A stretch of DNA of 48,932 nt, from the IMG/VR virus record IMGVR_UViG_640753024_000009, one strand, 5' to 3'. This DNA comes from a virus. Lineage: Duplodnaviria > Heunggongvirae > Uroviricota > Caudoviricetes. Below, piece by piece: positions 10,060 through 48,134 of this stretch (position 1 is the first letter of the stretch; each line of letters begins with the position of its first letter). The notes beneath the pieces are model-generated. The model saw only the letters and a program-made list of their open reading frames with translations. It was not told the DNA's origin and did no database searches. Made by a program: the position numbers and the translations under genes.

Positions 10060-10965
10060 TTACGCCATTTGTTGATTTGGTTTATCTGTTTCGCCGTCAG
10101 GACAGGTGTGCACATGCCCGTTATATGTAATGCGCATCTCGTTCATCGTGCCTTGTCGGTCCTGCACATCTTGCCCTGCTAACACACTACCGCGAGTTGT
10201 GATATTACCGGTTCCACCGTTATCTCCAGTGACAGAAATATCGTTACGGAATGTCGCTAATTTATCTACTACTAATGTCTCGGTAATATGAGTTGGACCA
10301 GCTAGTGTTATCCCACCCGGAGCCCACGCACTGATTGTTTGAGCTGTCAGCGATATTCTGTTCGCAGCAGTAACACTAACAGAACTCGTTGCTATAACGT
10401 TCACTAAATCAGCATGTGCGTTAATTGTATCTGTCGCTGTGACATTAATAATATCAGCGTCCGCGTTAATTAATTTTCCACCGTGAATATTGACAACGTT
10501 TTCGCTATTAATAGTAACGTCTGCACGTCCGAATATTTCTATTTCAGACTCACCGAGTATTTTTACTACGCCGTCCGGTACGCCCTGCCAGGTCAGCGTG
10601 TGGTTTTTCGTGTTATACGTCAGCCTGGCCCCGTCACAATACGCAGTGACGTGATCATGGGGGTCGCTACTGGGCGGATCTACGTTGTCAATGTGCAGTC
10701 CGAGCATAACTACGCCGTTCCGCGTGTCCCCACCCTCTGAAACAACAGTAACGGGGTCACCTACTGATGGTGCGCTCCAGTCGATTCGCTCGGACGTTGC
10801 GTGAGTAAACCATTGCAGCCAACCCGACTGGTGTTCGCCGCCAAATGAGACCCGACAGCGAGGGGGTTTCATTTGAACTGCAGCTATCGTGCCGCGTTTA
10901 ACCGCGTCACGCAGCCTGCGCGCGTTCTCCGCTGCGGCGTATTCATCATCGTCCGATTGGGCCAT
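10060..10965 (-). CDS. Baseplate spike/assembly protein V
   Basis: 301-aa product with repetitive beta-rich C-terminal region (VTATDTINAHADLVNVIATSSVSVTAAN) typical of spike proteins; first gene of the V-W-J-I block. Confidence 0.7.
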   Translation of the reverse strand: MAQSDDDEYAAAENARRLRDAVKRGTIAAVQMKPPRCRVSFGGEHQSGWLQWFTHATSERIDWSAPSVGDPVTVVSEGGDTRNGVVMLGLHIDNVDPPSSDPHDHVTAYCDGARLTYNTKNHTLTWQGVPDGVVKILGESEIEIFGRADVTINSENVVNIHGGKLINADADIINVTATDTINAHADLVNVIATSSVSVTAANRISLTAQTISAWAPGGITLAGPTHITETLVVDKLATFRNDISVTGDNGGTGNITTRGSVLAGQDVQDRQGTMNEMRITYNGHVHTCPDGETDKPNQQMA

Positions 10966-18813: not shown

Positions 18814-19451
18814 ACTCCGCCGAGGGGATAGGTATCCTCGGCTATCCAGTACCCAACCGCGGCCCCGTTTTTATCGATATCAACACCGGCGCGGCGAAAT
18901 TGAGTGTCAGCTGCGTAGCCAGGATTTCGAATTCGTTTCGGTGAGACCATTTTGAATCGCGTCCGAAAAACGCTGCCGGCGCAGCTCTCCCACACCGGTT
19001 GTACGCAGGTTTCACCGTTGAACGCGTGAGTGGCCACGCCTTCGCGAATCATCATTGTGAACGTCCGTTTCCGCTCGATATCAATCGTGCAGTGAGGGTC
19101 CTCGGCGTATTCAGTCCACGCGACCTCAACGTCACGCGCCAGCGCCCTGGCGTCCTCGCGAGATATCCCGATGTAACGCCAGTTAGGGCGATAACTCAAC
19201 TTAAACAGATTGCCGACGATATGATCCTGATGCAGCTGCACGGCGTTCGACGCGACGCCGTTATTACGAACGAGATCGTCTGCTCGCGCGTTACCGCGAT
19301 AAAAATTAGGCAGCAGTGCCGCATCGGCGCTTTGCTGTGGTGCATTCCAGTCAATCAGCTGGCCACCGAAGCCGGGACCGCCGCCGTTATACCCCGCGTA
19401 ACGGCGTAGTGGCGTTTTACCGTCAGGCCCGAGCAACTGCTGAGCAGTCAT
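18814..19451 (-). pseudogene. Portal protein (lambda gpB family), N-terminal fragment truncated by the IS element
   Basis: LLGPDGKTPLRRYAGYNGGGPGFGGQL and LPNFYRGNARADDLVRNNG match the lambda B N-terminus; ORF runs into IS sequence and stops 9 codons later. Confidence 0.85.
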
Positions 19452-25923: not shown

Positions 25924-26216
25924 CAGATAAACTCCTCATCGCGCCAGATAGCCAGTGTTCTGAAAACTCCCTCAGCGTGCATCAACAACAATGAGTCGTG
26001 CTCGTAATCCGTTTTTGTACGTCCGTCGATGGCATCGTGACACGCACTACAGGCGATAGCGCCCTGCATATCGTGAGGTTTGATGGCTGTGCCGCACGTT
26101 CCGGCGAGACGATAATGAGCCAGTACGCTGGTTTCAGGATTGTGATTGCACACACCGGGGATACGCACAGTACAAGCGCGACCACGTGCAGCTTTTCTCA
26201 GGTCGATTTTTTTCAT
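25923..26216 (-). CDS. YbcO-like Cys-rich protein (DUF1364 family, nin region)
   Basis: 97 aa; LRKAARGRACTVRIPGVCNHNPETSVLAHYRL...ACSACHD matches the YbcO family of lambdoid prophages. Confidence 0.75.
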   Translation of the reverse strand: MKKIDLRKAARGRACTVRIPGVCNHNPETSVLAHYRLAGTCGTAIKPHDMQGAIACSACHDAIDGRTKTDYEHDSLLLMHAEGVFRTLAIWRDEEFI

Positions 26217-26809
26217 GATGTGTAATCCAGCAGCTGCGCGGCAGCATTTTCAGCAGCCTCCTGAGAGGCAAACGTGCGGAACAAAATATAATTCCACAGC
26301 ACATCTAAAACGGCTGAATACAGTTGACCGAACTCAAGATCGTCCATCGCAGCAAACGAGATTGAACGAGGTACGCGCATCAAACTGCCGTCTGGCATCT
26401 GATGAACGTCATAAAACCCAGCTTCCATAATCGCCCATGCGCGAAACGCCTCGAACGACTTCACCGCACTGATATTCCCCGCGCGCTTTTCCGACTCATC
26501 GAGAAGATACTGATCAGCCAGCTCTGCCATGACATCACCGTGTCCACCGTAATACGCCAGTAACTTAACGTAGCCGTGAACCAGTTCGCGCTCCGCAGGA
26601 GAAATAGCCCCTCCGGACGGATGCCAGTAATCAAAGCCCAGGTTGAGAAGTGAGAAAAATTTACGGTGAAACGCGGGATTGCGTGCCTGTTTGAAATCTG
26701 CATACACAACAGCACCTGGTTTGACTCGTTCAGTCAACCAGCGTTGCGTGTCTGGTGTCGCGGGTATTAGCGAACCGCCGGATACCCTGATAAATGAATG
26801 CTGCGCCAT
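26213..26809 (-). CDS. Conserved nin-region phage protein, function unknown
   Basis: 198-aa ORF with 4-nt overlap to the YbcO-like gene. Confidence 0.45.
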   Translation of the reverse strand: MAQHSFIRVSGGSLIPATPDTQRWLTERVKPGAVVYADFKQARNPAFHRKFFSLLNLGFDYWHPSGGAISPAERELVHGYVKLLAYYGGHGDVMAELADQYLLDESEKRAGNISAVKSFEAFRAWAIMEAGFYDVHQMPDGSLMRVPRSISFAAMDDLEFGQLYSAVLDVLWNYILFRTFASQEAAENAAAQLLDYTS

Positions 26810-26886
26810 GGTTAACTCCAGGTGGCGCGGCAGTGTTCAGAAAATGGTGCCGGGTGTTCAATCCAGCACCGATATTATACCGTGTT

Positions 26887-27066
26887 TTACGCGTCAGGGG
26901 GTGTAATAGTATATCCAGCTATTTCTGCCAACTCGAGAAACGCCATCAGGCTGGCAATCCGTTCATCATCAGTCAGAACACGCACACCAACGATGTGTCC
27001 GTCCTTACGCTTGATAACAGCCCGGCATGTTTCCGGTAGTTCGCCTATAGATTCTTGAATATTCAT
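26887..27066 (-). CDS. Hypothetical small protein (59 aa)
   Basis: Below track cutoff; found by manual translation (MNIQESIGELPETCRAVIKRKDGHIVGVRVLTDDERIASLMAFLELAEIAGYTITPPDA); strong SD GGGGGAAG upstream of ATG at 27066. Confidence 0.35.
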   Translation of the reverse strand: MNIQESIGELPETCRAVIKRKDGHIVGVRVLTDDERIASLMAFLELAEIAGYTITPPDA

Positions 27067-27217
27067 GTCTTCCCCCTAACGCCATTACCTGTACATTTAT
27101 ACAGTATTTTATGGCATTTGTCATAACGCCAGATACAATGAGGGAATAATGAACAATTATATTCACGTCGTGAATTTTATTAAACGGTTTTATAGGGGAT
27201 TAAACCGTTTATGGTCA

Positions 27218-27954: not shown

Positions 27955-28368
27955 TAGTAAATCATTTGTGCCAAATTATAAGACCACACCGTAAGCTTTT
28001 ATATGCGTCCTATGGTTATAGCTCATATTATATGCTTCAAAAATATCTATTCTTTTGTTCTAACGTCAACACCTACCCTTAAAAGATTAATTCTCTAAGA
28101 ATGAGAGAATGTTGTGTGTATTAGATAAGATATGAGCTGACACATCTATGGCGTGAAGACAAATTTAATCTGACAGTCTACTTTGTTGCCAGAGCGGATA
28201 TCGCAAGCGTTAAGTCAGATATTTGAAAACGCATCGTTATCCTGGTTGGGATACTTGCACTACTTTTAGGCGTACTGCTATCTTGCACAGTTATTCAAAG
28301 GTAATTTTTTCTTTATTAGTAGCCTACTTCCAGGGGCTTGTACAACTGACAAAACGAGGGAGATCCCC

Positions 28369-29148
28369 ATGAGCAACAAAGATTTTTCACTTTTTTATTT
28401 TGCAACCATTGATCGGTCTTACTTCCTCGACAAACACAATTTTTATGTTGCTGAAGCCAGAAAGCGTCTATTTTCGCAGTTTAGCGATTCTGATCTTGAA
28501 GCTGAAGCCAGGCAGAGAGAACAAGATTACTATGAGGCCGCCGGTAAGCGTTTTGACCCCGATTATGACGACGAAGGGGCTATCTGTGAACAGGCTCATG
28601 ATGAAGGAATTTCACATTGGATTGCTCTCAGTGATATGAAAAATACGGTTTCACTTGCTCTGACAGCAGGAATGTTTCATCAGTTCGACAAGGAACTTAG
28701 AGAGAAGTGTATCAGAGAATTCAGCCATTGGCTCGACGCTAAATCCGTAACATCGATGATCTGGGACATTAGCTTCCCAAGGCTAATTGAAATTCTAGAA
28801 TGGATTGGGATGGATATCACCAGCAAGGCTTATTACGAAAAAATCGATGCCTGTCGCCAAGTGGTTAATGTTTATAAGCACGGTGATGGCCATGCCCATC
28901 GGGTGCTTTCCGTCGCGCATCCTGAGTATTATCAGGATATCAATATTCCAAGAGGCTACAGATTTAGTCTACGTCATGAGCAACTTGAGGTTACAGAAAC
29001 ACAGTTTATAGAGTTTGCAGATGCGATTACAGCTTTCTGGAATGATATCCCAACATACTGTATGCGCTCAGCTATTCGGGAAGAACCTGAATGGATAAAA
29101 GGCGAATATAAAAAACATGAGAAGAAAGTTAAAATGCTTCAGGACTAA
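28369..29148 (+). CDS. Hypothetical protein (259 aa), accessory island cargo
   Basis: SD GAGGGA 8 nt upstream of ATG at 28369; opposite strand to phage backbone; no recognised domain. Confidence 0.55.
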   Translation: MSNKDFSLFYFATIDRSYFLDKHNFYVAEARKRLFSQFSDSDLEAEARQREQDYYEAAGKRFDPDYDDEGAICEQAHDEGISHWIALSDMKNTVSLALTAGMFHQFDKELREKCIREFSHWLDAKSVTSMIWDISFPRLIEILEWIGMDITSKAYYEKIDACRQVVNVYKHGDGHAHRVLSVAHPEYYQDINIPRGYRFSLRHEQLEVTETQFIEFADAITAFWNDIPTYCMRSAIREEPEWIKGEYKKHEKKVKMLQD

Positions 29149-29233
29149 AATTCTTGATAATAGCAAGTGTATCCTACATGTAGACATTTGCCTGCCGTGT
29201 CTTTTAGCTACCCTAGCTGCGAGAACAATTACG

Positions 29234-29339
29234 AACTTCCGCTCCTCGCTCACAGCGAACTTTCAACTCAGTTAGCTTGCCCGCTTCGTACCAAAAGCGG
29301 GCATTGCTAACATCTATCTCCATCAATCTGTGGGAACAG
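29234..29339 (+). repeat. Structured island repeat, copy 1
   Basis: Shares CTCGCTCACAGCG box (29245-29257), hairpin GCCCGCTT...AAGCGGGC (29279-29302), GCTAACA and GTGGGAACAG boxes with copies 2 and 3. Confidence 0.7.
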
Positions 29340-29626
29340 CTCGCCGTAATAGCACATTGAATCCTATGTCTAAAAGCAGATGTTCTGGTTTGCCGGGAAA
29401 TTTACAAAATGACGGCGTCTCTTGTTAGAGGTTCTCCCTGCTTCACACTGCTGATTCTTCATGGATTTTAGTATAATTAGTGAAAAAAATTTTTTTGGTT
29501 GTTATCATATACATGAGGACTTCTTCAGAAGAACTGAGAAAAATTCGGGGTTCACTTAACACAATGACAATTAAGAAGATTAACTGTCTGGTAAGTGATT
29601 ATTTTATTCATTAAAAAACAAACATC

Positions 29627-30289
29627 ATGATAATTGACTTTATAAAAAGCAAGGAAGCCTTGCTAATATTGGCAATAACTGTTCTATCTTATATGTCTGC
29701 AATTTCATTTGAATATGGCTATGCATATCATTTTGATTATCCTATGGAGTTTATAACGTTAGATTCTAAATTTTTATTCGTGGGTATGTCATATTTATTT
29801 TTTAATATAATTTGTGTTATGTTGATGTTTTTTACTCCATGGCCTGAAAGTAAAGTAAAAGCAGTTAAAGTTACTGCAGTTACAGTTTTTATCATGATTG
29901 TTTTTATTGTTCAGTCTTATAGACATAAGACTGAATATGGTGGTTTTTTCGTTTTAAGTTTATCGATAGCAACAGTTACTTATATTATATACAAAATTGT
30001 TAAAAATCATAAACGTAATCCAAGTTATTTAATTTGGTCTGCAACCCTTCCCCTTATTGCCATAATGACATTTAGTTTCTTAATTGGTTTACAACAAGCG
30101 TCATTAAAAAAAGAATTTAGTTACTTTCATGATCAATCTAAAGACTACGTGATTATTAGGTTGTATGACGGTAACCTTGTCGCTAAAGAAGTAAATATAA
30201 AAGAGCGCAAGCTAGGGAGTGAGATATTATATATACCTAGCTATAACCCAGCCCCTATAACGTTAAATAAAATTAAAATAGAACAATAG
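29627..30289 (+). CDS. Multi-pass membrane protein (220 aa), very AT-rich
   Basis: At least four hydrophobic helices; low-GC coding sequence; flanked by repeat copies 1 and 2. Confidence 0.6.
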   Translation: MIIDFIKSKEALLILAITVLSYMSAISFEYGYAYHFDYPMEFITLDSKFLFVGMSYLFFNIICVMLMFFTPWPESKVKAVKVTAVTVFIMIVFIVQSYRHKTEYGGFFVLSLSIATVTYIIYKIVKNHKRNPSYLIWSATLPLIAIMTFSFLIGLQQASLKKEFSYFHDQSKDYVIIRLYDGNLVAKEVNIKERKLGSEILYIPSYNPAPITLNKIKIEQ

Positions 30290-30432
30290 ATTCATATAGT
30301 GGCCTTATGAAAAATAGGTCACTATCGTTGATATTTCATATGAATTTTTAACGACCTTGGTAGTAAAATTATCGTAAATCCCCTACATAACAAGACCATT
30401 TACTATAGATCTGTTTTACTCTCAATAAAATC

Positions 30433-30532
30433 AACTTCCGCTCCTCGCTCACAGCGGACCTTCAGTTTTTGTCCGCTTCGTGTCAGAAGCGGAAGTAGCT
30501 AACAACAGCCTATGTTGATTCAAGGGGAACAG
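30433..30532 (+). repeat. Structured island repeat, copy 2
   Basis: AACTTCCGCTCCTCGCTCACAGCG block identical to copy 1; hairpin TCCGCTTC...GAAGCGGA (30472-30493); GCTAACA; GGGGAACAG (30524-30532). Confidence 0.7.
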
Positions 30533-30611
30533 GTCACTGGGTTAATCTAATTATGTCCCTTTAGAACCATCTTTCTTAAGTGAATATATTTTCACTTTAT
30601 TTTCTACTGCC

Positions 30612-31991
30612 TCAGTCATAAGGTTTGTTTTTGGCTTTTGACATCATGAGAAGGAAATATGAAGGGTGGCTCTTTATTTCTGAAGAATGGCTTGTAATAT
30701 TAAAGACATCTTTTAGAATCGTAAAAGCTCCTGTAGCCAACGACACTGGATTTGGTGCACCAATAAAACCTATCAATGAAGGCACACTGTTAAGAAAAAG
30801 TTCTTTTTTACTCTTCCGCTTATAGGCTTGTATTTTTTGCTCAATATCTGTCAATCCTTCATCCCACACCCGCTCGACAAAATGTTGATTTATTAGTTGT
30901 CTCTTATATGGATCACTTTCTGCTTCTATATCATACGCAGCTTCACGTAGTACAGAGCGGAAAGAATTAAAACTCGGCTCGTAGTCAGTTCTAATTTTGT
31001 AGAGTTCACTTGGAGTCAGTCCCTCTAAGAATGGAACGTCTATAGAGAGTTTAACCCTCTGAACTTCATTCTTTTGATCAAGTTTACGAAGAATCTCTCC
31101 ATGAAACGGGCAATATGCCCCCAGGGATGCTCTACATGAATGCGCTTGGTTAAGGTCAGTAATAAGGTTTTTATAATGAAAGAGAACCGTACGGTTTTTT
31201 GCTCCCTGCACCCACCGTTCATAACTTTTTTTTCCGCTATGATTTCCCATGACAAGCTCCATAGATATGGAGCCATCATCATTATCAATGGCATTTTTTA
31301 TATGTTGATACATATATCCATTTGTATATAAACTTTCACAGTCTTTAATTTCCAACATAATTTCATTAGATAAAACATTTTTGTTTAATAACCGAATTTT
31401 ATTTGTATTACCTAGACGTTCTATATTCTTTACGGATAGTCTATTTTCATAAAGACGGGCAATGTTAGGAGGGAGATATCGATATATAAAATTAGCATCA
31501 GAGTTATCGTCTAAAATTCCATTGGCCCTCTCCGAATCTTTAATAGAAGATTCGCTGCGTACAAAAACGATAAACTCACCACGGATAAGATCAAAGTTTT
31601 CTTTAGCAAACCTGATAAATCTAGCAATTTCCTTCCTGAGATGTTCAACCTTCTCTTTTCTATCGCTTACAATAATTTTTTCAAATGCATTTTCTGTTAG
31701 ACTCACTCTGTATCGTAGGCTCAATGAATACAGAACATCATCAAGAATGACTCTGTCCATTGAAAACAGTCCACTCTTATACCTTTCAATATTACGATTT
31801 CCCGCCATGTAAACATTTAGCCGAGACTCCTGTACAGAATTTGCTTGCTCGATAATCAGTGAATCTATTCTTTTATTATATTCATCTAACTCAATTAGCA
31901 ATTCATTCAATCCAATATTTTCATATTCCTGATCTAAAAGTCGATCAACCCAGAAAAGGCTTTCTGTGAGGGCATAGAGGTTGTTGTACAT
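30612..31991 (-). CDS. Hypothetical protein (459 aa), AT-rich
   Basis: AGGA 7 nt upstream of ATG at 31991; convergent with the membrane protein gene; flanked by repeat copies 2 and 3; no recognised domain. Confidence 0.6.
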   Translation of the reverse strand: MYNNLYALTESLFWVDRLLDQEYENIGLNELLIELDEYNKRIDSLIIEQANSVQESRLNVYMAGNRNIERYKSGLFSMDRVILDDVLYSLSLRYRVSLTENAFEKIIVSDRKEKVEHLRKEIARFIRFAKENFDLIRGEFIVFVRSESSIKDSERANGILDDNSDANFIYRYLPPNIARLYENRLSVKNIERLGNTNKIRLLNKNVLSNEIMLEIKDCESLYTNGYMYQHIKNAIDNDDGSISMELVMGNHSGKKSYERWVQGAKNRTVLFHYKNLITDLNQAHSCRASLGAYCPFHGEILRKLDQKNEVQRVKLSIDVPFLEGLTPSELYKIRTDYEPSFNSFRSVLREAAYDIEAESDPYKRQLINQHFVERVWDEGLTDIEQKIQAYKRKSKKELFLNSVPSLIGFIGAPNPVSLATGAFTILKDVFNITSHSSEIKSHPSYFLLMMSKAKNKPYD

Positions 31992-32150
31992 ATCAGTTCC
32001 TTTTTACCAGGCTTCAGTCAGAGTACACTATCATTTTACATTTAAATGTACTTCCAAGCATCATGCTGTTAGTGCCGGATTATAACACTTGGCACCCGTA
32101 TGTTTGGATAACAAACTGCGTATAATCCTTGTGAGTTGTGATGTCTGTTT

Positions 32151-36684: not shown

Positions 36685-37479
36685 TCAAAATGCTGAATCA
36701 GCAACAGATACAGCCGACTTTTCCCCCATTAGCATCAATTTATCCAGCGTCATACTTCGCAGGTTGTCGCTGTGGATCACCAGATACCCTGCCCGCTCAG
36801 CGATCTCTTTGAAAGCGTCAAAAGTCATCAGATGTTCGCCTTTGGCAACATGGCGCATCCTGGTCACTTTTCCATTTTTGATAGTGGTGATAAAAGAAAA
36901 ATCTGGAATGGTTGGCTGCTTTTCATCGAGCAGCAGGCAGTGGATGTATTCAATCGCTTCTAACATTTGCGCCTGTGACAGTTGTTCTATGTGAGAGACG
37001 GCGAAGCGTTGATGAATCATGGTATAAGCATCGGGATACATCATGCCTTTCTTGCCGACCAGCATATTAACGGCATCACGTAAGGGGGTGCGGTCATCGG
37101 TGGTTGTACTCCGCCTCTCTGGACGCTGGCTAAAATAGCAATCTTCAAGCTTTTCGAAAACTTCCCAGGCCTGTTCTGTTTCCAGCATTTTGGCATGGCG
37201 AGCTGCGCCGCATTCTGTCCAGAGGATGAGAGAGCGGACATTTCTGGCGATTTTCACAGGAGGTCTTAAAGACATGCTGTGCTTAAATTCGCGCAACTCC
37301 TCACCTTCGAGCAAAAAGTAATGCTTCCCGACCACGAATCGCTCTGAGTTCCGGTTATGGTTTTTACGAATGTAATCCGGCTCTGTGCCATAGAGGTTCG
37401 CGAGTAATTCGGTGGTGAGGACGGGAAGTTGGTTGTGGATAATCGGGGAGATGGCTGCTGCGGATACTTGAGTTGTCAT
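36685..37479 (-). CDS. Antirepressor-like protein with N-terminal ORF6N/KilA-N-type DNA-binding domain
   Basis: LTTELLANLYGTEPDYIRKNHNRNSERFVVGKHYFLLEGEELREFK resembles the ORF6N domain of phage antirepressors; AGGA upstream of ATG at 37479. Confidence 0.55.
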   Translation of the reverse strand: MTTQVSAAAISPIIHNQLPVLTTELLANLYGTEPDYIRKNHNRNSERFVVGKHYFLLEGEELREFKHSMSLRPPVKIARNVRSLILWTECGAARHAKMLETEQAWEVFEKLEDCYFSQRPERRSTTTDDRTPLRDAVNMLVGKKGMMYPDAYTMIHQRFAVSHIEQLSQAQMLEAIEYIHCLLLDEKQPTIPDFSFITTIKNGKVTRMRHVAKGEHLMTFDAFKEIAERAGYLVIHSDNLRSMTLDKLMLMGEKSAVSVADSAF

Positions 37480-37636
37480 AGCGATTTCCTTTTAGTCGGA
37501 TAATCACCCCCCTCAGGTGCAAATCTTTGGGTGGTGAGACATGCAGGGTTTGCACTACCGGCTAAAAGGACCCGGCGAGCCTTTCGACTCCCCTACACGC
37601 CCCACCATAAATCGCGGATGTGGCTGTGCGCACGAC

Positions 37637-37659
37637 AATAAAAAAGACGCTGGCGCGTC
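37637..37659 (-). terminator. Intrinsic terminator ending the rightward early (replication/nin) transcript
   Basis: Palindrome GACGCTGGCGCGTC followed on the minus strand by TTTTTTATTG. Confidence 0.5.
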
Positions 37660-37751
37660 GTTGTCGCCTTTTAGATATCCGGGGTGCAAATCCCGGCAAC
37701 CGATTTTGCGGCTGCGCGGAAACTATAGCCCCGGGCTTTTTCTAAGTCAAT

Positions 37752-37973
37752 TCAATCAACTTCAAACCTCCGGTGTTCACATTCCATACACTCAACGGGA
37801 ACATCATCGCGATGCAAGTCCACATATCCGACCCGCTTATACAACTCAATAATGTCCGGTAACGTGACCAGATGTTTTTCCGGTTCCAACACCTCAGCCT
37901 TGGTTACTTTGTAATCTGAAATATAGAGCACTATCCGCCCGTTCCGTGGTAACTCCAGTTTATCGCCAAACAT
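37752..37973 (-). CDS. Hypothetical nin-region protein (73 aa)
   Basis: ORF on backbone strand in the small-gene cluster downstream of the replication genes. Confidence 0.35.
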   Translation of the reverse strand: MFGDKLELPRNGRIVLYISDYKVTKAEVLEPEKHLVTLPDIIELYKRVGYVDLHRDDVPVECMECEHRRFEVD

Positions 37974-38160: not shown

Positions 38161-38385
38161 TCATACAGCCTCCCTGCTCTCAAACGGGCGAATATTTGTT
38201 GGTTCTCCACACGGAATGGCCCAACCCAGCCAGGTGAATATTTTCAGGTCACACATCGCGTCATACTGCTCACCGGGGATAATGTCGATCATGCTGCATA
38301 CAATTTCGTATTGATCATTAACGGCACTCAACGCCACTTTGTCGTTAATAAATCGTGGAATAAATGCGAGTAAAATTTCGTTCAT
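38161..38385 (-). CDS. Hypothetical nin-region protein (74 aa)
   Basis: 4-nt overlap with upstream gene; backbone strand. Confidence 0.35.
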   Translation of the reverse strand: MNEILLAFIPRFINDKVALSAVNDQYEIVCSMIDIIPGEQYDAMCDLKIFTWLGWAIPCGEPTNIRPFESREAV

Positions 38386-38615
38386 TTTTCTCGTTCCCCT
38401 CTCCAGTAATTCAGTCGGTCCCTGAAAAACTCCCGGTAATTATCAGGAGTATTTTTCAACGCCTCTGTAACCGTGCCGCGTGGTATTCGTTTTTCGTATA
38501 ACTGGCGAATCAGCCCGGCGGCGCGCAAATCGTAATGTTCCAGTATTTGATACTCCTGCGGCCATGCTGCCCTGTTGTGTGGCAACCCAGCCGGGAGATA
38601 ATCTGCGCCAGTCAT
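38382..38615 (-). CDS. Hypothetical nin-region protein (77 aa)
   Basis: Start overlaps stop of upstream gene; backbone strand. Confidence 0.4.
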   Translation of the reverse strand: MTGADYLPAGLPHNRAAWPQEYQILEHYDLRAAGLIRQLYEKRIPRGTVTEALKNTPDNYREFFRDRLNYWRGEREK

Positions 38616-41773: not shown

Positions 41774-42250
41774 TCATGCATGGTGGTCTTGCGCAGTGCG
41801 TATCACTGCTCCTCGCGTCGCTACCAGCGCCGCTATTGCTTCGTCAATTTCCTGGATAGTTAACTCTGGCGCGAAGTGGAGATGTACAGCGTTAATCGCT
41901 TCCACCCCTTCTTTTGCCGCCAGCGTTGCCAGCAAAACGGGATCGCCCGGCGACTCCAGACGCGCCCGCCGTTCTGCGGGTAGCACGGCTTTCATCACAC
42001 TGGCCAGCACCTGAGTTTTTCGGCGCGCCGCCGTTGTCTCGCCACGTAACCAGCGAAAGATTTTCTGCCGATTGTTGTTGATGGCTCTCCAGTCCACATT
42101 GCCGTCCGCGTCCTCAAATTCATGTAGTCTCAACTCATCATTGCGTCCCTGACTGAACCAGGCCCGGCAGATTTCAATCGTGACGAGTTCCTGCCCAGCC
42201 CTTGCCGCCCAGGTCAAAATCTCTTTTTGTAATTCCTCTGGGTTTTCCAT
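41774..42250 (-). CDS. Putative early regulator in the CII position (CII-like or YdaT-like)
   Basis: 158-aa ORF immediately downstream of cro-like gene; assignment by position. Confidence 0.35.
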   Translation of the reverse strand: MENPEELQKEILTWAARAGQELVTIEICRAWFSQGRNDELRLHEFEDADGNVDWRAINNNRQKIFRWLRGETTAARRKTQVLASVMKAVLPAERRARLESPGDPVLLATLAAKEGVEAINAVHLHFAPELTIQEIDEAIAALVATRGAVIRTAQDHHA

Positions 42251-42309: not shown

Positions 42310-42507
42310 CTAAGCTTTTTCATGTTTTGGAACATCGTAAAAAGTCGGGTCATATTTCAGTGCTCCGTTAGTGATATGGTCGAGTCGAGCAGCTCGCTTT
42401 TCAGGAACTGTTGCCCCCCAACGAGTAACCGCCACTTGAGATATACCCAGCACCTTGGCTGTGGCTGTCTTTGAACCAAAAAAACTAATAACCGTCTCTG
42501 TTTTCAT
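42310..42507 (-). CDS. Cro-like HTH regulator
   Basis: 65 aa; HTH TATAKVLGISQVAVTRWG; divergent from the repressor gene across the operator region; GGAGGG SD. Confidence 0.65.
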   Translation of the reverse strand: MKTETVISFFGSKTATAKVLGISQVAVTRWGATVPEKRAARLDHITNGALKYDPTFYDVPKHEKA

Positions 42508-42519
42508 AATCCCTCCACG

Positions 42520-42556
42520 TAACTTTTGTTAGCAAAATAAATACTAACGAAAGTTA
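42520..42556. promoter_or_regulatory. Operator sites O1 and O2 (TAAC-N4-GTTA) in the cro/repressor intergenic region
   Basis: TAACTTTTGTTA at 42520-42531 and TAACGAAAGTTA at 42545-42556; adjacent GTTAAC at 42563-42568. Confidence 0.5.
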
Positions 42557-42562
42557 TGTCAA
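42534..42562 (-). promoter_or_regulatory. Putative PR-like promoter for the cro/replication operon
   Basis: Minus-strand -35 TTGACA (42562-42557), 17-nt spacer containing O2, -10 TATTTT (42539-42534), about 30 nt upstream of cro ATG. Confidence 0.45.
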
Positions 42563-42575
42563 GTTAACTTATATT

Positions 42576-42989
42576 ATGAGGATGAAGAATTTGATGCTTA
42601 GCGACCGTTTATCTCAAAGACGCAAACAGCTTGGTCTAACCCAACAACAGCTTGCTGATATGGTTGGAAGATCGAGTGTGAGCGTTTTTAAATGGGAAAG
42701 CGGACAAAATGAACCAAAAGGTCAGAACTTGCTGGCTTTGGCCAATGCACTTAAGTGTTCTGCCACATGGCTGCTTTTTGGTGACGAAGACCAGGCGCCA
42801 ACTCCGGTAGACGAATTACCAACAGAGCTGGATTCACGTCAAAAAAGATTGTTAGAGTTATTTGATTCATTACCCGAGTCAGAAAAAGAAAAGCAACTAA
42901 TTGAATTAGAAGATAAAGTTGAAAACTTTAATCGTTTATTTGAAGAGTTACTGGTTACCAGAAAGAAACTAACCCCCATCAAAAAATAA
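42576..42989 (+). CDS. CI-like prophage repressor (HTH, no obvious S24 peptidase domain)
   Basis: HTH LTQQQLADMVGRSSVSVFKWESG; start may be 42576 (leaderless-like), 42582 or 42594; strong terminator follows. Confidence 0.65.
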   Translation: MRMKNLMLSDRLSQRRKQLGLTQQQLADMVGRSSVSVFKWESGQNEPKGQNLLALANALKCSATWLLFGDEDQAPTPVDELPTELDSRQKRLLELFDSLPESEKEKQLIELEDKVENFNRLFEELLVTRKKLTPIKK

Positions 42990-42993
42990 AATA

Positions 42994-43028
42994 AAGGCAA
43001 TGTTTTCAATGCATTGCCTTTATTTTTA
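42994..43028 (+). terminator. Intrinsic terminator after the repressor gene
   Basis: AAGGCAATG...CATTGCCTT 9-bp stem followed by TATTTTT. Confidence 0.6.
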
Positions 43029-43038
43029 CCCCAAATAC

Positions 43039-43050
43039 TAACTTTTGTTA
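43039..43050. promoter_or_regulatory. Third operator copy (TAACTTTTGTTA)
   Basis: Exact repeat of O1 core, located after the repressor terminator and upstream of the next early genes. Confidence 0.4.
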
Positions 43051-43168
43051 TAAAACACCTTGCGCATAAAATTACCTTTAGTTATATTCATTCCATCAAC
43101 AACGCTTACCCAGCGGCAGTTGTTCAGAAAAACGTTCCGCTACCCGGCGTTAAGGGAAAGGAGAAGAG

Positions 43169-46657: not shown

Positions 46658-46838
46658 ACTGACCGGTTACCAGTTCCCGTCAAAACAATGCGGTGCCCTG
46701 ACCCGTGCCGGGATCTCTTATGTAAAACGCCGCGACGGGCGACCTCGCGTCACGTGGACGCATGTAAACGCCGCGCTGTCCGGAGCAAGGTCCGTGCAGA
46801 TTGCCGAAGAAGAACAACCTAATTTTGATGCAATCTGA
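46623..46838 (+). CDS. xis: Excisionase-like DNA-binding protein
   Basis: 71 aa; LLTDQELVELTGYQFPSKQ motif; GAGGA SD; stop overlaps the integrase start. Confidence 0.55.
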   Translation: MNDLLTDQELVELTGYQFPSKQCGALTRAGISYVKRRDGRPRVTWTHVNAALSGARSVQIAEEEQPNFDAI

Positions 46839-47866
46839 TGAGCAGAACACGAAAAAGCGCGGAAGATAATAAGCTGCCACCCCGCGTTTATAAAAACAAA
46901 TACAGCTATTATTTCAAACCAACGCCCCGAGAGTGTATTACGCTGGGTAAAATTAATGATCTGTCAATTGCTCAGGTATGGGTGAAATACGAAGAGATCC
47001 TGAATGATGCTATTGATGTCATGACGTTCAGTAAACTCTGGAACAAATTTCTCAACAGCACCTACTATCTGGAACTCGGTCAGCGTACACAAAAGGATTA
47101 TCTGCAGCACCAGAAGAAATTACTCGCCGCGTTCGGGAAAATGAAAGCCGACAACGTAAAACCTGCTCACGTGCGGCTGTATATGGACAAGCGGGGGCTG
47201 AAAAGCAAAACACAGGCGAACCATGAAAAAGCCAGTATGTCGCGAGTATTCCGCTGGGGATACGAACGCGGATACGTAAAAGGGAATCCATGCCAGGGCG
47301 TCAGTAAATTTTCCCTCAAGCCCCGCGACTACTATTTCACGGACGAGGAATATATCGCAATTTATCAGGAGGCATCTCCCGTTTTACAGTGCGCGATGGA
47401 GATCGCCTATCTGTGCGCCACGCGGATCGGCGATATACGAAAGCTGACGTGGGATCAGGTAATGAGTAAGGGGTTGTTTATCCAACAGGGTAAGACTGGC
47501 AAAAAGCAGATCAAACAGTATTCAGAGCGACTGACGTTCGCACTTGAGCAGGCGAAATCGTTGGGAGGACAACATTTCGTGGTCTGTAACAAATATGGCG
47601 GGCAATACAGCTATACCGGATTTAACGATATCTGGCGTAAAGCCAGGGCGGCGGCAAGTGAAAAGCTGGGCTACCCGATTACGGGAACGTTTCACGATTT
47701 AAAAGCGAAGGGGATCTCAGACTACGACGGAAGCAGTAAAGAAAAGCAGTTGTTCTCTGGTCACAAAACAGAGGCGCAAGTGCTGACGTATGATCGCAAA
47801 CCCGCAGTAACTCCAACTCTGGATATTCCGGTGCTGGATGTCACAGTTCTGAGCAGAAACCCGTGA
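46838..47866 (+). CDS. int: Tyrosine integrase (lambda Int family)
   Basis: 342 aa; catalytic-domain motifs (CATRIGDIRKLTW, HDLKAKG, GHKTEAQVLTY); adjacent to the tRNA gene. Confidence 0.9.
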   Translation: MSRTRKSAEDNKLPPRVYKNKYSYYFKPTPRECITLGKINDLSIAQVWVKYEEILNDAIDVMTFSKLWNKFLNSTYYLELGQRTQKDYLQHQKKLLAAFGKMKADNVKPAHVRLYMDKRGLKSKTQANHEKASMSRVFRWGYERGYVKGNPCQGVSKFSLKPRDYYFTDEEYIAIYQEASPVLQCAMEIAYLCATRIGDIRKLTWDQVMSKGLFIQQGKTGKKQIKQYSERLTFALEQAKSLGGQHFVVCNKYGGQYSYTGFNDIWRKARAAASEKLGYPITGTFHDLKAKGISDYDGSSKEKQLFSGHKTEAQVLTYDRKPAVTPTLDIPVLDVTVLSRNP

Positions 47867-47951
47867 CGGTCTAATTCTAAGTGAATATTCTAAGTCCGTT
47901 CTAACAGGGGGATCGACGGTGAAAAGTGAGTGACGTAAGTCATTGATAAAG

Positions 47952-48041
47952 TGGCGGAGAGAGGGGGATTTGAACCCCCGGTAGAGTTGCCCCTACTCCG
48001 GTTTTCGAGACCGGTCCGTTCAGCCGCTCCGGCATCTCTCC
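47952..48041 (-). tRNA. serU: tRNA-Ser (anticodon CGA), serU-like; prophage attachment site
   Basis: 90-nt sequence folds as class II tRNA: acceptor GGAGAGA/TCTCTCC plus GCCA, anticodon stem CCGGT/ACCGG with loop CTCGAAA, long variable arm, T-loop GGTTCAAATCC. Confidence 0.9.
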
Positions 48042-48134
48042 GTTCAGATGGTTGCCATGATGCCAGGAAATTTGGCATTTTAACAGTCCCTGTCCGTGCA
48101 ATTTTGTTCAAGTGACGAGTTTGCGAGCAAAACG

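Follow-up and report, generated by a model that had tools for sequence, protein, structure and literature searches.

How does a prophage whose repressor appears unable to cleave itself hold, and then release, its lytic genes? The question is raised by a DNA stretch of 48,932 nucleotides from a tailed virus (Caudoviricetes; IMG/VR record IMGVR_UViG_640753024_000009), referred to below as the window, in which a repressor gene of the DicA family and a cro-like gene are transcribed away from each other. Judged by its gene content and sequence, the region serves as immunity switch to a lambdoid Escherichia coli prophage that appears complete. The original prediction, made from the letters alone, had already described an immunity switch here, and the placement and conservation of the palindromes and their covariation with the repressor's recognition helix now support it. 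We read the locus as a DicA-type switch with five predicted operators, with Rem-family antirepressors as the most likely inducers and a gene of 59 amino acids (aa) as the link to the SOS response, and we give this reading a probability of roughly 0.7. It brings nothing conceptually new but extends the paradigm of DicA and of the Gifsy prophages.

The predicted operators, with the core CTAAC-N4-GTTAG, form two groups (Table 1), three of them (A, B, and C) in the operator region between the divergent genes (OR) and two (OL1 and OL2) past the terminator of the repressor gene (OL). The original prediction had listed three TAAC-N4-GTTA palindromes, our sites A, B, and OL1; all three are where it placed them, but the set was too small, since two sites with one mismatch each (C and OL2) bring the total to five. 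The minus-strand promoter that it described, TTGACA-17-TATTTT, was found again in a promoter scan as the best match of the region (PR), with 10 of 12 consensus positions matched and site B inside its spacer. Likewise, the repressor terminator that it assumed corresponds to a hairpin with a predicted fold of −19.3 kcal/mol (z = −6.4), the stem of which has changed on both sides in E. coli strain 44 and in Cronobacter phage phiES15. The palindrome beyond this terminator, which it had suggested to control the leftward early genes, belongs to an operator of the PL type, where a conserved promoter (PL; TTGCGC-17-TATATT) carries the second OL site in its spacer. Another placement of PL, a match of the promoter scan reading TTGTTA-16-TAAAAT, was rejected because neither phiES15 nor strain 44 conserves it.

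Exact matches to TAACNNNNGTTA number four in the window, compared to 0.58 expected, and four were reached in only 1 of 100 shuffles. Three of these matches lie inside a 531-bp stretch at the repressor gene, a clustering for which our Poisson estimate is ~4e-8, and the fourth, at position 19174, has a G+C-rich center and a low weight matrix score. With a weight matrix trained solely on relatives less than 98% identical, the five operators obtained the five highest scores of the whole window, OL1 ranking first, OL2 fourth, and site C fifth.

To follow these sites through the family we used 89 DicA-family loci, obtained from an alignment-based scan of viral contigs and from annotated phages; a scan of genome contigs with the single protein gave one near-identical locus from E. 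whittamii and otherwise distant or partial helix-turn-helix matches (25 to 51% identity), left unused. The repressor of phiES15 is 69.5% identical to that of the window, and that of strain 44 is 78 to 80% identical (about 75% at the DNA level). Both carry TAAC-N4-GTTA at the same OR and post-terminator positions with different central bases, and the second downstream site is also found in them, as TACCTTTAGTTA or TATCTTTGGTTA. Repressors with the recognition helix S(S/G)VS(V/I)(F/Y/L)KWE make up a class of 21 loci, from which 17 unique OR and 19 unique OL sequences were aligned. In this alignment the half-sites TAAC and GTTA are kept, while the central tetranucleotide and the flanks differ between sequences, with CTAAC-N4-GTTAG as the extended consensus. 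At OL1, TAAC and TTA are invariant across the 19 unique sequences, and so is TTGC of PL within the class alignment. Beyond the class, the PR −35 element, CTTGAC(A/T), is found family-wide in DicA regions at a constant distance from the repressor start, and the position of PL aligns with the hexamers TTGACC-17-TAATCT that we read upstream of ydfA in E. coli K-12, the location of dicBp. Most regions inspected share one layout, with OR sites over the PR start, in the PR spacer, and directly before the repressor start, and with two PL sites, the first ahead of the −35 and the second within the spacer and −10. The position of site C is occupied in other operator classes by a palindrome specific to each class.

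Recognition helix and operator core were found to change together. The helix S(S/G)VS(V/I)(F/Y/L)KWE goes with TAAC-N4-GTTA; ..SQWE helices, including that of K-12 DicA, with NTTAG-N6-CTAAN; SHVT(I/V)FKWE with CTTAAC-N4-GTTAAG; and SGSSISLWE (phage mEp460) with TTGAG-N4-CTCAA. In a motif count over the 89 loci, TAAC-N4-GTTA accompanied all eight variants of the first helix, never ..SQWE or SHVT(I/V)FKWE, and appeared elsewhere only as single OR matches in two (Y/H)VT(V/I)YRWE variants (3 loci). TTAG-N6-CTAA was restricted to ..SQWE helices and TGAG-N4-CTCA to SGSSISLWE. By our reading, T-A at −6/−5 from the dyad is common to every operator class except that of mEp460, so these classes, mEp460's aside, would share the same geometry. 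The apparent inversion of half-sites between our operators and Oc of the K-12 Qin prophage (TTGTTAGTCATAACTAACAA) is resolved in the same way, since both have T-A at −6/−5 when counted from the dyad. The operator half-site of P22, which we take to be TTAAG-N4-CTTAA, would also have the dyad geometry of CTAAC-N4-GTTAG. A literature search for the operator strings returned nothing relevant. The comparative tests that we ran concerned the placement of the sites, their conservation, and their covariation with the helix, and in each of them the palindromes behave as operators, which supports this assignment. From conservation and helix-operator covariation, the window repressor is predicted to bind them and to repress promoters of the PR and PL types.

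The repressor itself is a member of the DicA family by the curated threshold of NCBI, scoring 199 bits (cutoff, 101) with NF007257, "transcriptional repressor DicA," of which positions 1 to 132 of 135 align with its residues 3 to 132. The longest open reading frame (ORF) begins at 42576 (137 aa), but relatives keep the second ATG (42582), from which a protein of 135 aa, as long as DicA, would be made. This codon lies 6 nt past the conserved TATATT at 42570-42575, no usable Shine-Dalgarno sequence precedes it, and for these reasons we propose that the repressor mRNA may be leaderless, like that of lambda cI from PRM. Pfam recognized helix-turn-helix families only (best, HTH_3 at residues 13 to 66). 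Matches in PDB placed the N-terminal domain closest to the DNA-binding domain of P22 C2 (E = 5e-15) and spanned the N-terminal 70 to 75 residues, with one weak match extending to residue 103. The C-terminal domain is short (70 aa) and helical, with an LPESEK...FEELL motif. GtgR of Gifsy-2 is 31% identical to the repressor (E = 2e-11) and shares the C-terminal motif LLxLFxxLPExEK.

The original prediction saw no S24 autoprotease domain in this protein, suggested that induction may depend on an antirepressor, and pointed to an ORF6N-type gene at 36685-37479. Neither Pfam nor NCBIfam finds an S24 domain, the sequence contains no Ala-Gly cleavage site, and the features of SOS-cleavable repressors of the lambda and P22 type in the LexA/S24 superfamily (S24 domain, Ser/Lys dyad, and Ala-Gly site) are not those of this repressor. 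A cryptic S24 domain is ruled out by the Pfam, NCBIfam, and PDB comparisons. As it lacks this domain and is too short (135 to 137 aa) to contain one, the repressor should be unable to cleave itself, and since its studied relatives are induced through antirepressors, this route is the most likely one here as well. The ORF6N gene is also confirmed, but as one of three candidates, and the one with a link to SOS is the 59-aa gene.

Antirepressors are known from these relatives. In K-12, DicA represses dicBp, and Rem, the DicA antirepressor, derepresses this promoter 165-fold (PMC10448788). The Gifsy repressors are inactivated by the small proteins GfoA, GftA, and GfhA, produced from LexA-controlled dinI-ant-irsA operons (PMC3121763). 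Three modules of the window fall into phrog_340, the PHROG of K-12 Rem (itself matching at E = 4.4e-21 over profile positions 12 to 68), namely, the 59-aa gene, a 73-aa gene of the PR operon, and the C terminus of the ORF6N protein, where residues 198 to 240 match positions 30 to 72 (E = 2.9e-12). The 73-aa and 59-aa proteins also align with each other by BLASTP (E = 4e-5). Pfam and NCBIfam gave no significant family for the small ORFs, the only hit being that of Rem to SocB_toxin, with 14.9 bits against a cutoff of 210.

The 59-aa gene stands behind a LexA box that reads CTGTATAAATGTACAG on the minus strand and covers the −10 of its predicted promoter, the LexA-box-over-promoter arrangement of the Gifsy-type operon. 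This box is one of two exact CTGT-N8-ACAG matches in the window and its sole A+T-rich CTG-N10-CAG match. The order that follows, a small gene of the nin region (<100 aa) and then an irsA homolog, is also that of the Gifsy LexA operon (PMC3121763) and puts the 59-aa gene where Gifsy-2 has gftA. Phage BUCT708, whose DicA-family repressor is of another operator class, has a perfect LexA box, a phrog_340-type ORF (40% identity), and a DUF1367 gene in the same arrangement. phiES15, which has the same operator type as the window, was isolated by UV induction. An unannotated phrog_340 ORF was seen in phiES15 at 10173-10475, and the SOS link of this phage may be wired differently.

The ORF6N gene has an RNA control region upstream with a promoter of its own. 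Rfam identified there an isrK Hfq-binding RNA (RF01394; 37715..37640, 76.2 bits, gathering score of 50) and a C4 antisense RNA (RF01695; 37612..37527, 73.6 bits, gathering score of 45), so that the arrangement of the locus is the one found upstream of the antirepressor genes in isrK-orf45-anrP of Gifsy-1 and in c4-ant of P1 immI. No LexA box was found near this gene in searches of the window.

Along these lines, we propose that the 135-aa repressor most likely binds as a dimer at five 14-bp dyad sites. Sites A and B together would block PR and with it cro, the cII-like gene, and the replication genes, while site C, overlapping the likely −10 of the repressor's own promoter just before the start codon, could provide negative autoregulation. 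OL1, which abuts the −35, and OL2, which fills the spacer, would block PL and the operon of recE-like, gam, xis, and int genes. The P22_Cro-family product of PR probably acts at these sites too, with the order of preference reversed. Upon DNA damage, LexA would leave the promoter of the 59-aa gene, the product of which would then inactivate the repressor, and the 73-aa paralog in the PR operon could reinforce the switch once PR has fired. The fusion of ORF6N and Rem-like modules, gated by isrK and C4 RNAs, would be a second input independent of SOS. The order of occupancy and the identity of the antirepressor that acts are, like binding itself and the leaderless transcript, predictions from sequence, in contrast to the sequence features, conservation, recognition-helix covariation, family memberships, and synteny, which are observed.

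Several observations weigh against this model. Of the three predicted OR sites of K-12, only Oc bound DicA in vivo, and Om and Oa did not (PMC3441716); by analogy, B, C, or OL2 might bind the repressor weakly or serve Cro alone. The assignment of site C is less certain than the others because the PR −35 and the −10 of the repressor promoter constrain the same stretch, and the −35 of PL in the window agrees with the consensus in just 3 of its 6 bases. As for the antirepressor, phrog_340 is annotated as of "unknown function," BLASTP gave no alignment between Rem and the 59-aa protein, their kinship resting on the PHROG profile, and GftA of Gifsy-2 belongs to phrog_4847 instead. There is no dinI gene, nor any ORF, between the LexA box and the 59-aa gene. 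In addition, mitomycin C does not induce K-12 dicBp, and no signal for rem is known (PMC10448788).

The strongest competitor, which we still regard as unlikely, takes the ORF6N-Rem fusion (37479..36685) for the main inducer, in the manner of AnrP of Gifsy-1. Gated by isrK and C4, it would respond to stationary-phase or stress signals rather than to LexA, and the 59-aa gene would do something else. The ORF6N domain, strong matches to "anti-repressor" PHROGs, the Rem-like C terminus, and the two RNAs immediately upstream all fit such a role, and a precedent exists in Gifsy-1, where supplying AnrP from a plasmid is enough to induce the prophage and translation of anrP is activated by IsrK (PMC4825925). 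Yet the ORF6N gene has no LexA box nearby, whereas the closest phage of the same operator type is UV inducible, and the 59-aa gene sits at the position of the proven antirepressor in the Gifsy LexA operon. Besides, the ORF6N and 59-aa routes are compatible with each other.

Even without any antirepressor, the switch might be thrown by repressor-Cro bistability or by loss of binding under temperature or other stress, as in the defective Qin prophage. K-12 provides precedents, as ~1% of cells turn on dicBp spontaneously, with no need of rem or recA, and this promoter also responds, by way of DicC, to urea and to high temperature (PMC10448788), and the binding of DicA depends on temperature (PMC3441716). 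We find this improbable for an apparently complete prophage with three Rem-family modules, one of them behind a perfect LexA box that is found also upstream of a distant homolog, all the more since the Gifsy prophages, which have related repressors, require an antirepressor for induction (PMC3121763).

That the palindromes are chance symmetries of A+T-rich promoters (single exact matches arise by chance ~0.6 times per window, and the best weight matrix score of shuffled windows averages 13.3, with a maximum of 19.0), or fragments of a longer composite operator TTGTTAG-N11-CTAACGA modeled on K-12 Oc (TTGTTAG-N6-CTAACAA) and laid over sites A and B, which together do form a 16-nt inverted repeat, is hardly credible for sites that cluster, occupy the same positions in diverged relatives, change along with the recognition helix, and, as TAAC-N4-GTTA, share T-A at −6/−5 with Oc and three of the four other classes. 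The composite in its core form, GTTAG-N11-CTAAC, fails at OL, where the spacing differs, and in strain 44, which has lost the left arm but kept site B.

The closest parallel to a DicA-type switch released by Rem-family proteins is Qin with DicA, DicC, and Rem. Both systems have a repressor of NF007257 (50 to 52% identity) with no S24 domain, a divergent gene of the P22_Cro type, three OR sites plus two more at dicBp or PL in equivalent positions, and an antirepressor of phrog_340. They differ in the recognition helix (SHVSVSQWE in Qin versus SSVSVFKWE here) and operator (TGTTAG-N6-CTAACA versus CTAAC-N4-GTTAG), and Qin is defective, whereas the prophage of the window is apparently complete and has two additional Rem-like modules. 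We saw no LexA box upstream of K-12 rem, unlike the Rem-family gene of the window.

With Gifsy-1, -2, and -3 (GfoR, GtgR/GftR, and GfhR) the window shares a short, noncleavable repressor and, in the case of Gifsy-1, an isrK locus in front of a larger antirepressor gene (PMC4825925). The absence of dinI, the family of the small protein (phrog_340 versus phrog_4847, as compared with GftA), and another type of Cro and operators set it apart. P22 c2/cro is alike in the N-terminal domain of the repressor and the family of Cro, but C2 is a 216-aa protein with an S24 autocleavage domain in place of the short helical domain found here. The general plan is that of lambda CI/Cro, with divergent PR and repressor promoters, three operators, a PL with its own operators past the repressor gene, and a repressor mRNA that is possibly leaderless, but the C-terminal domain is unrelated in sequence and would undergo no RecA-stimulated cleavage, and two OL sites are recognizable instead of three.

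In E. coli, work on the DicA-Rem circuit has until now dealt only with the K-12 remnant, and this prophage offers what is apparently an intact version. The consensus LexA box in front of its Rem-family gene hints at the way in which DNA damage fed into the ancestral circuit, and the correspondence of helices and operators among DicA-type repressors, with at least five classes, provides a specificity code ready for testing. The cassette of LexA box and 59-aa gene (26880-27180) is present in 443 of 5,426 complete E. coli genomes (~8%), ST131 included, and is annotated only as "hypothetical protein." In one ST131 prophage with the same ydaT flank, the repressor differs in its helix-turn-helix domain, whereas its C-terminal LPESEK domain is homologous; this prophage is known here from its repressor and ydaT flank, and the cassette was counted genome-wide. 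These two observations make cross-induction in trans possible. Tentatively, three signals might be read through the three Rem-like modules (the LexA-gated 59-aa protein, the 73-aa protein encoded from PR as positive feedback, and the ORF6N-Rem protein gated by small RNAs), all of them targeting the conserved LPESEK...FEELL domain, and the cassette could co-induce heteroimmune prophages of E. coli. We consider this doubtful as it stands, but if true, it would mean cross-induction between E. coli prophages, as shown for the Gifsy phages in Salmonella.

Table 1. Features of the switch and of the candidate antirepressor genes, most of them predicted, in window coordinates (a dot in the strand column, no strand given; promoter hexamers listed as −35, spacer, −10)
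Feature	Position	Strand	Sequence or support
Predicted operator A (OR, cro side)	42520..42531	.	TAACTTTTGTTA; over predicted PR start region; position of K-12 Oc
Predicted operator B (OR, middle)	42545..42556	.	TAACGAAAGTTA; wholly within 17-nt PR spacer
Predicted operator C (OR, repressor side)	42565..42576	.	TAACTTATATTA; one mismatch; overlaps candidate repressor −10 TATATT (42570-42575)
Predicted operator OL1	43039..43050	.	TAACTTTTGTTA; immediately upstream of PL −35
Predicted operator OL2	43073..43084	.	TACCTTTAGTTA; one mismatch; PL spacer and first two −10 bases
Predicted PR	42534..42562	-	TTGACA (42562..42557), 17 nt, TATTTT (42539..42534)
Predicted PL	43060..43088	+	TTGCGC (43060-43065), 17 nt, TATATT (43083-43088); OL2 in spacer
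Repressor gene, DicA family, 135 aa	42582..42989	+	NCBIfam NF007257; start conserved in relatives
Predicted intrinsic terminator of repressor gene	42988..43026	+	Perfect 15-nt arms
Cro-like gene, first of PR operon	42310..42507	-	Pfam P22_Cro PF14549, 71 bits (cutoff, 30.2); phrog_409
CII-like/YdaT-family gene, second of PR operon	41774..42250	-	PF06254, 57.4 bits; phrog_163 "CII-like transcriptional activator," E = 3e-42
73-aa Rem-family gene within PR operon	37752..37973	-	phrog_340, E = 4.2e-21, profile positions 17-84
RNA control region of ORF6N gene	37527..37750	-	Predicted promoter TTGACT-17-TATAGT (37750..37722), isrK RNA and terminator, C4 antisense RNA
ORF6N antirepressor gene with Rem-like C-terminal module (~residues 198-240)	36685..37479	-	PF10543, 64.8 bits; phrog_4792 "anti-repressor," E = 4e-148
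Predicted promoter of 59-aa gene	ATGACA (27124..27119), 17 nt, TATAAA (27101..27096)	-	LexA box over −10
LexA box	27089..27104	.	CTGTACATTTATACAG; overlaps minus-strand −10 TATAAA (27101..27096)
59-aa Rem-family gene, candidate SOS-controlled antirepressor	26887..27066	-	phrog_340, E = 1.6e-20, profile positions 13-70
irsA/DUF1367 homolog (198-aa ORF), downstream of 59-aa gene	26213..26809	-	56% identical to Gifsy-2 STM1020, E = 9e-83

The prophage is integrated beside a tRNA-Ser(CGA) gene (48041..47952, minus strand), with the integrase gene (46838..47866) adjoining. From 48096 onward an ORF resembles what we take to be E. coli mtfA, so the end of the prophage, with its attachment site, probably lies within 46838-48111. 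E. coli D217-5 and three further strains are 100% identical to the window, and SE11 and E62 are 99.9% identical. The immunity region was found in only about 11 of the 5,426 complete E. coli genomes, and megablast against the phage collection gave no match to it.

On the PR side, the P22_Cro-family gene is followed by the CII-like/YdaT gene, by replication genes, and by a gene for a DnaB-type helicase. The same operon contains a 77-aa ORF (38382-38615, minus strand) that matches phrog_1105, "DNA polymerase III theta subunit." In the opposite direction, on the strand of the repressor gene and 3′ of it, come a 74-aa ORF, a recE-like exonuclease, a Gam-like gene, the integrase, and the tRNA. The leader of PL (43089-43168) carries a stretch reading ...catcaac...gttccgctacccggcgttaaggg... 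that recurs in most of the DicA-family regions inspected, K-12 dicBp included. It may act as an RNA signal, nut-like or of another kind, and had no match in Rfam.

Among the nin-region genes there is a low-GC island (28000-32000) with 34 to 41% GC, compared to ~50% in the flanks. Its three ORFs (28369..29148, 29627..30289, and 30612..31991), for which PADLOC found no match, are possibly moron or defense genes of no recognized type. Lastly, a CRISPR spacer matching 42980-43012, which takes in the 3′ terminus of the repressor gene together with the left terminator arm, is present in about 60 of the 5,426 complete E. coli genomes; the target has an ATG protospacer-adjacent motif (PAM) on the minus strand, and the prophage sequence itself occurs in eleven other genomes.

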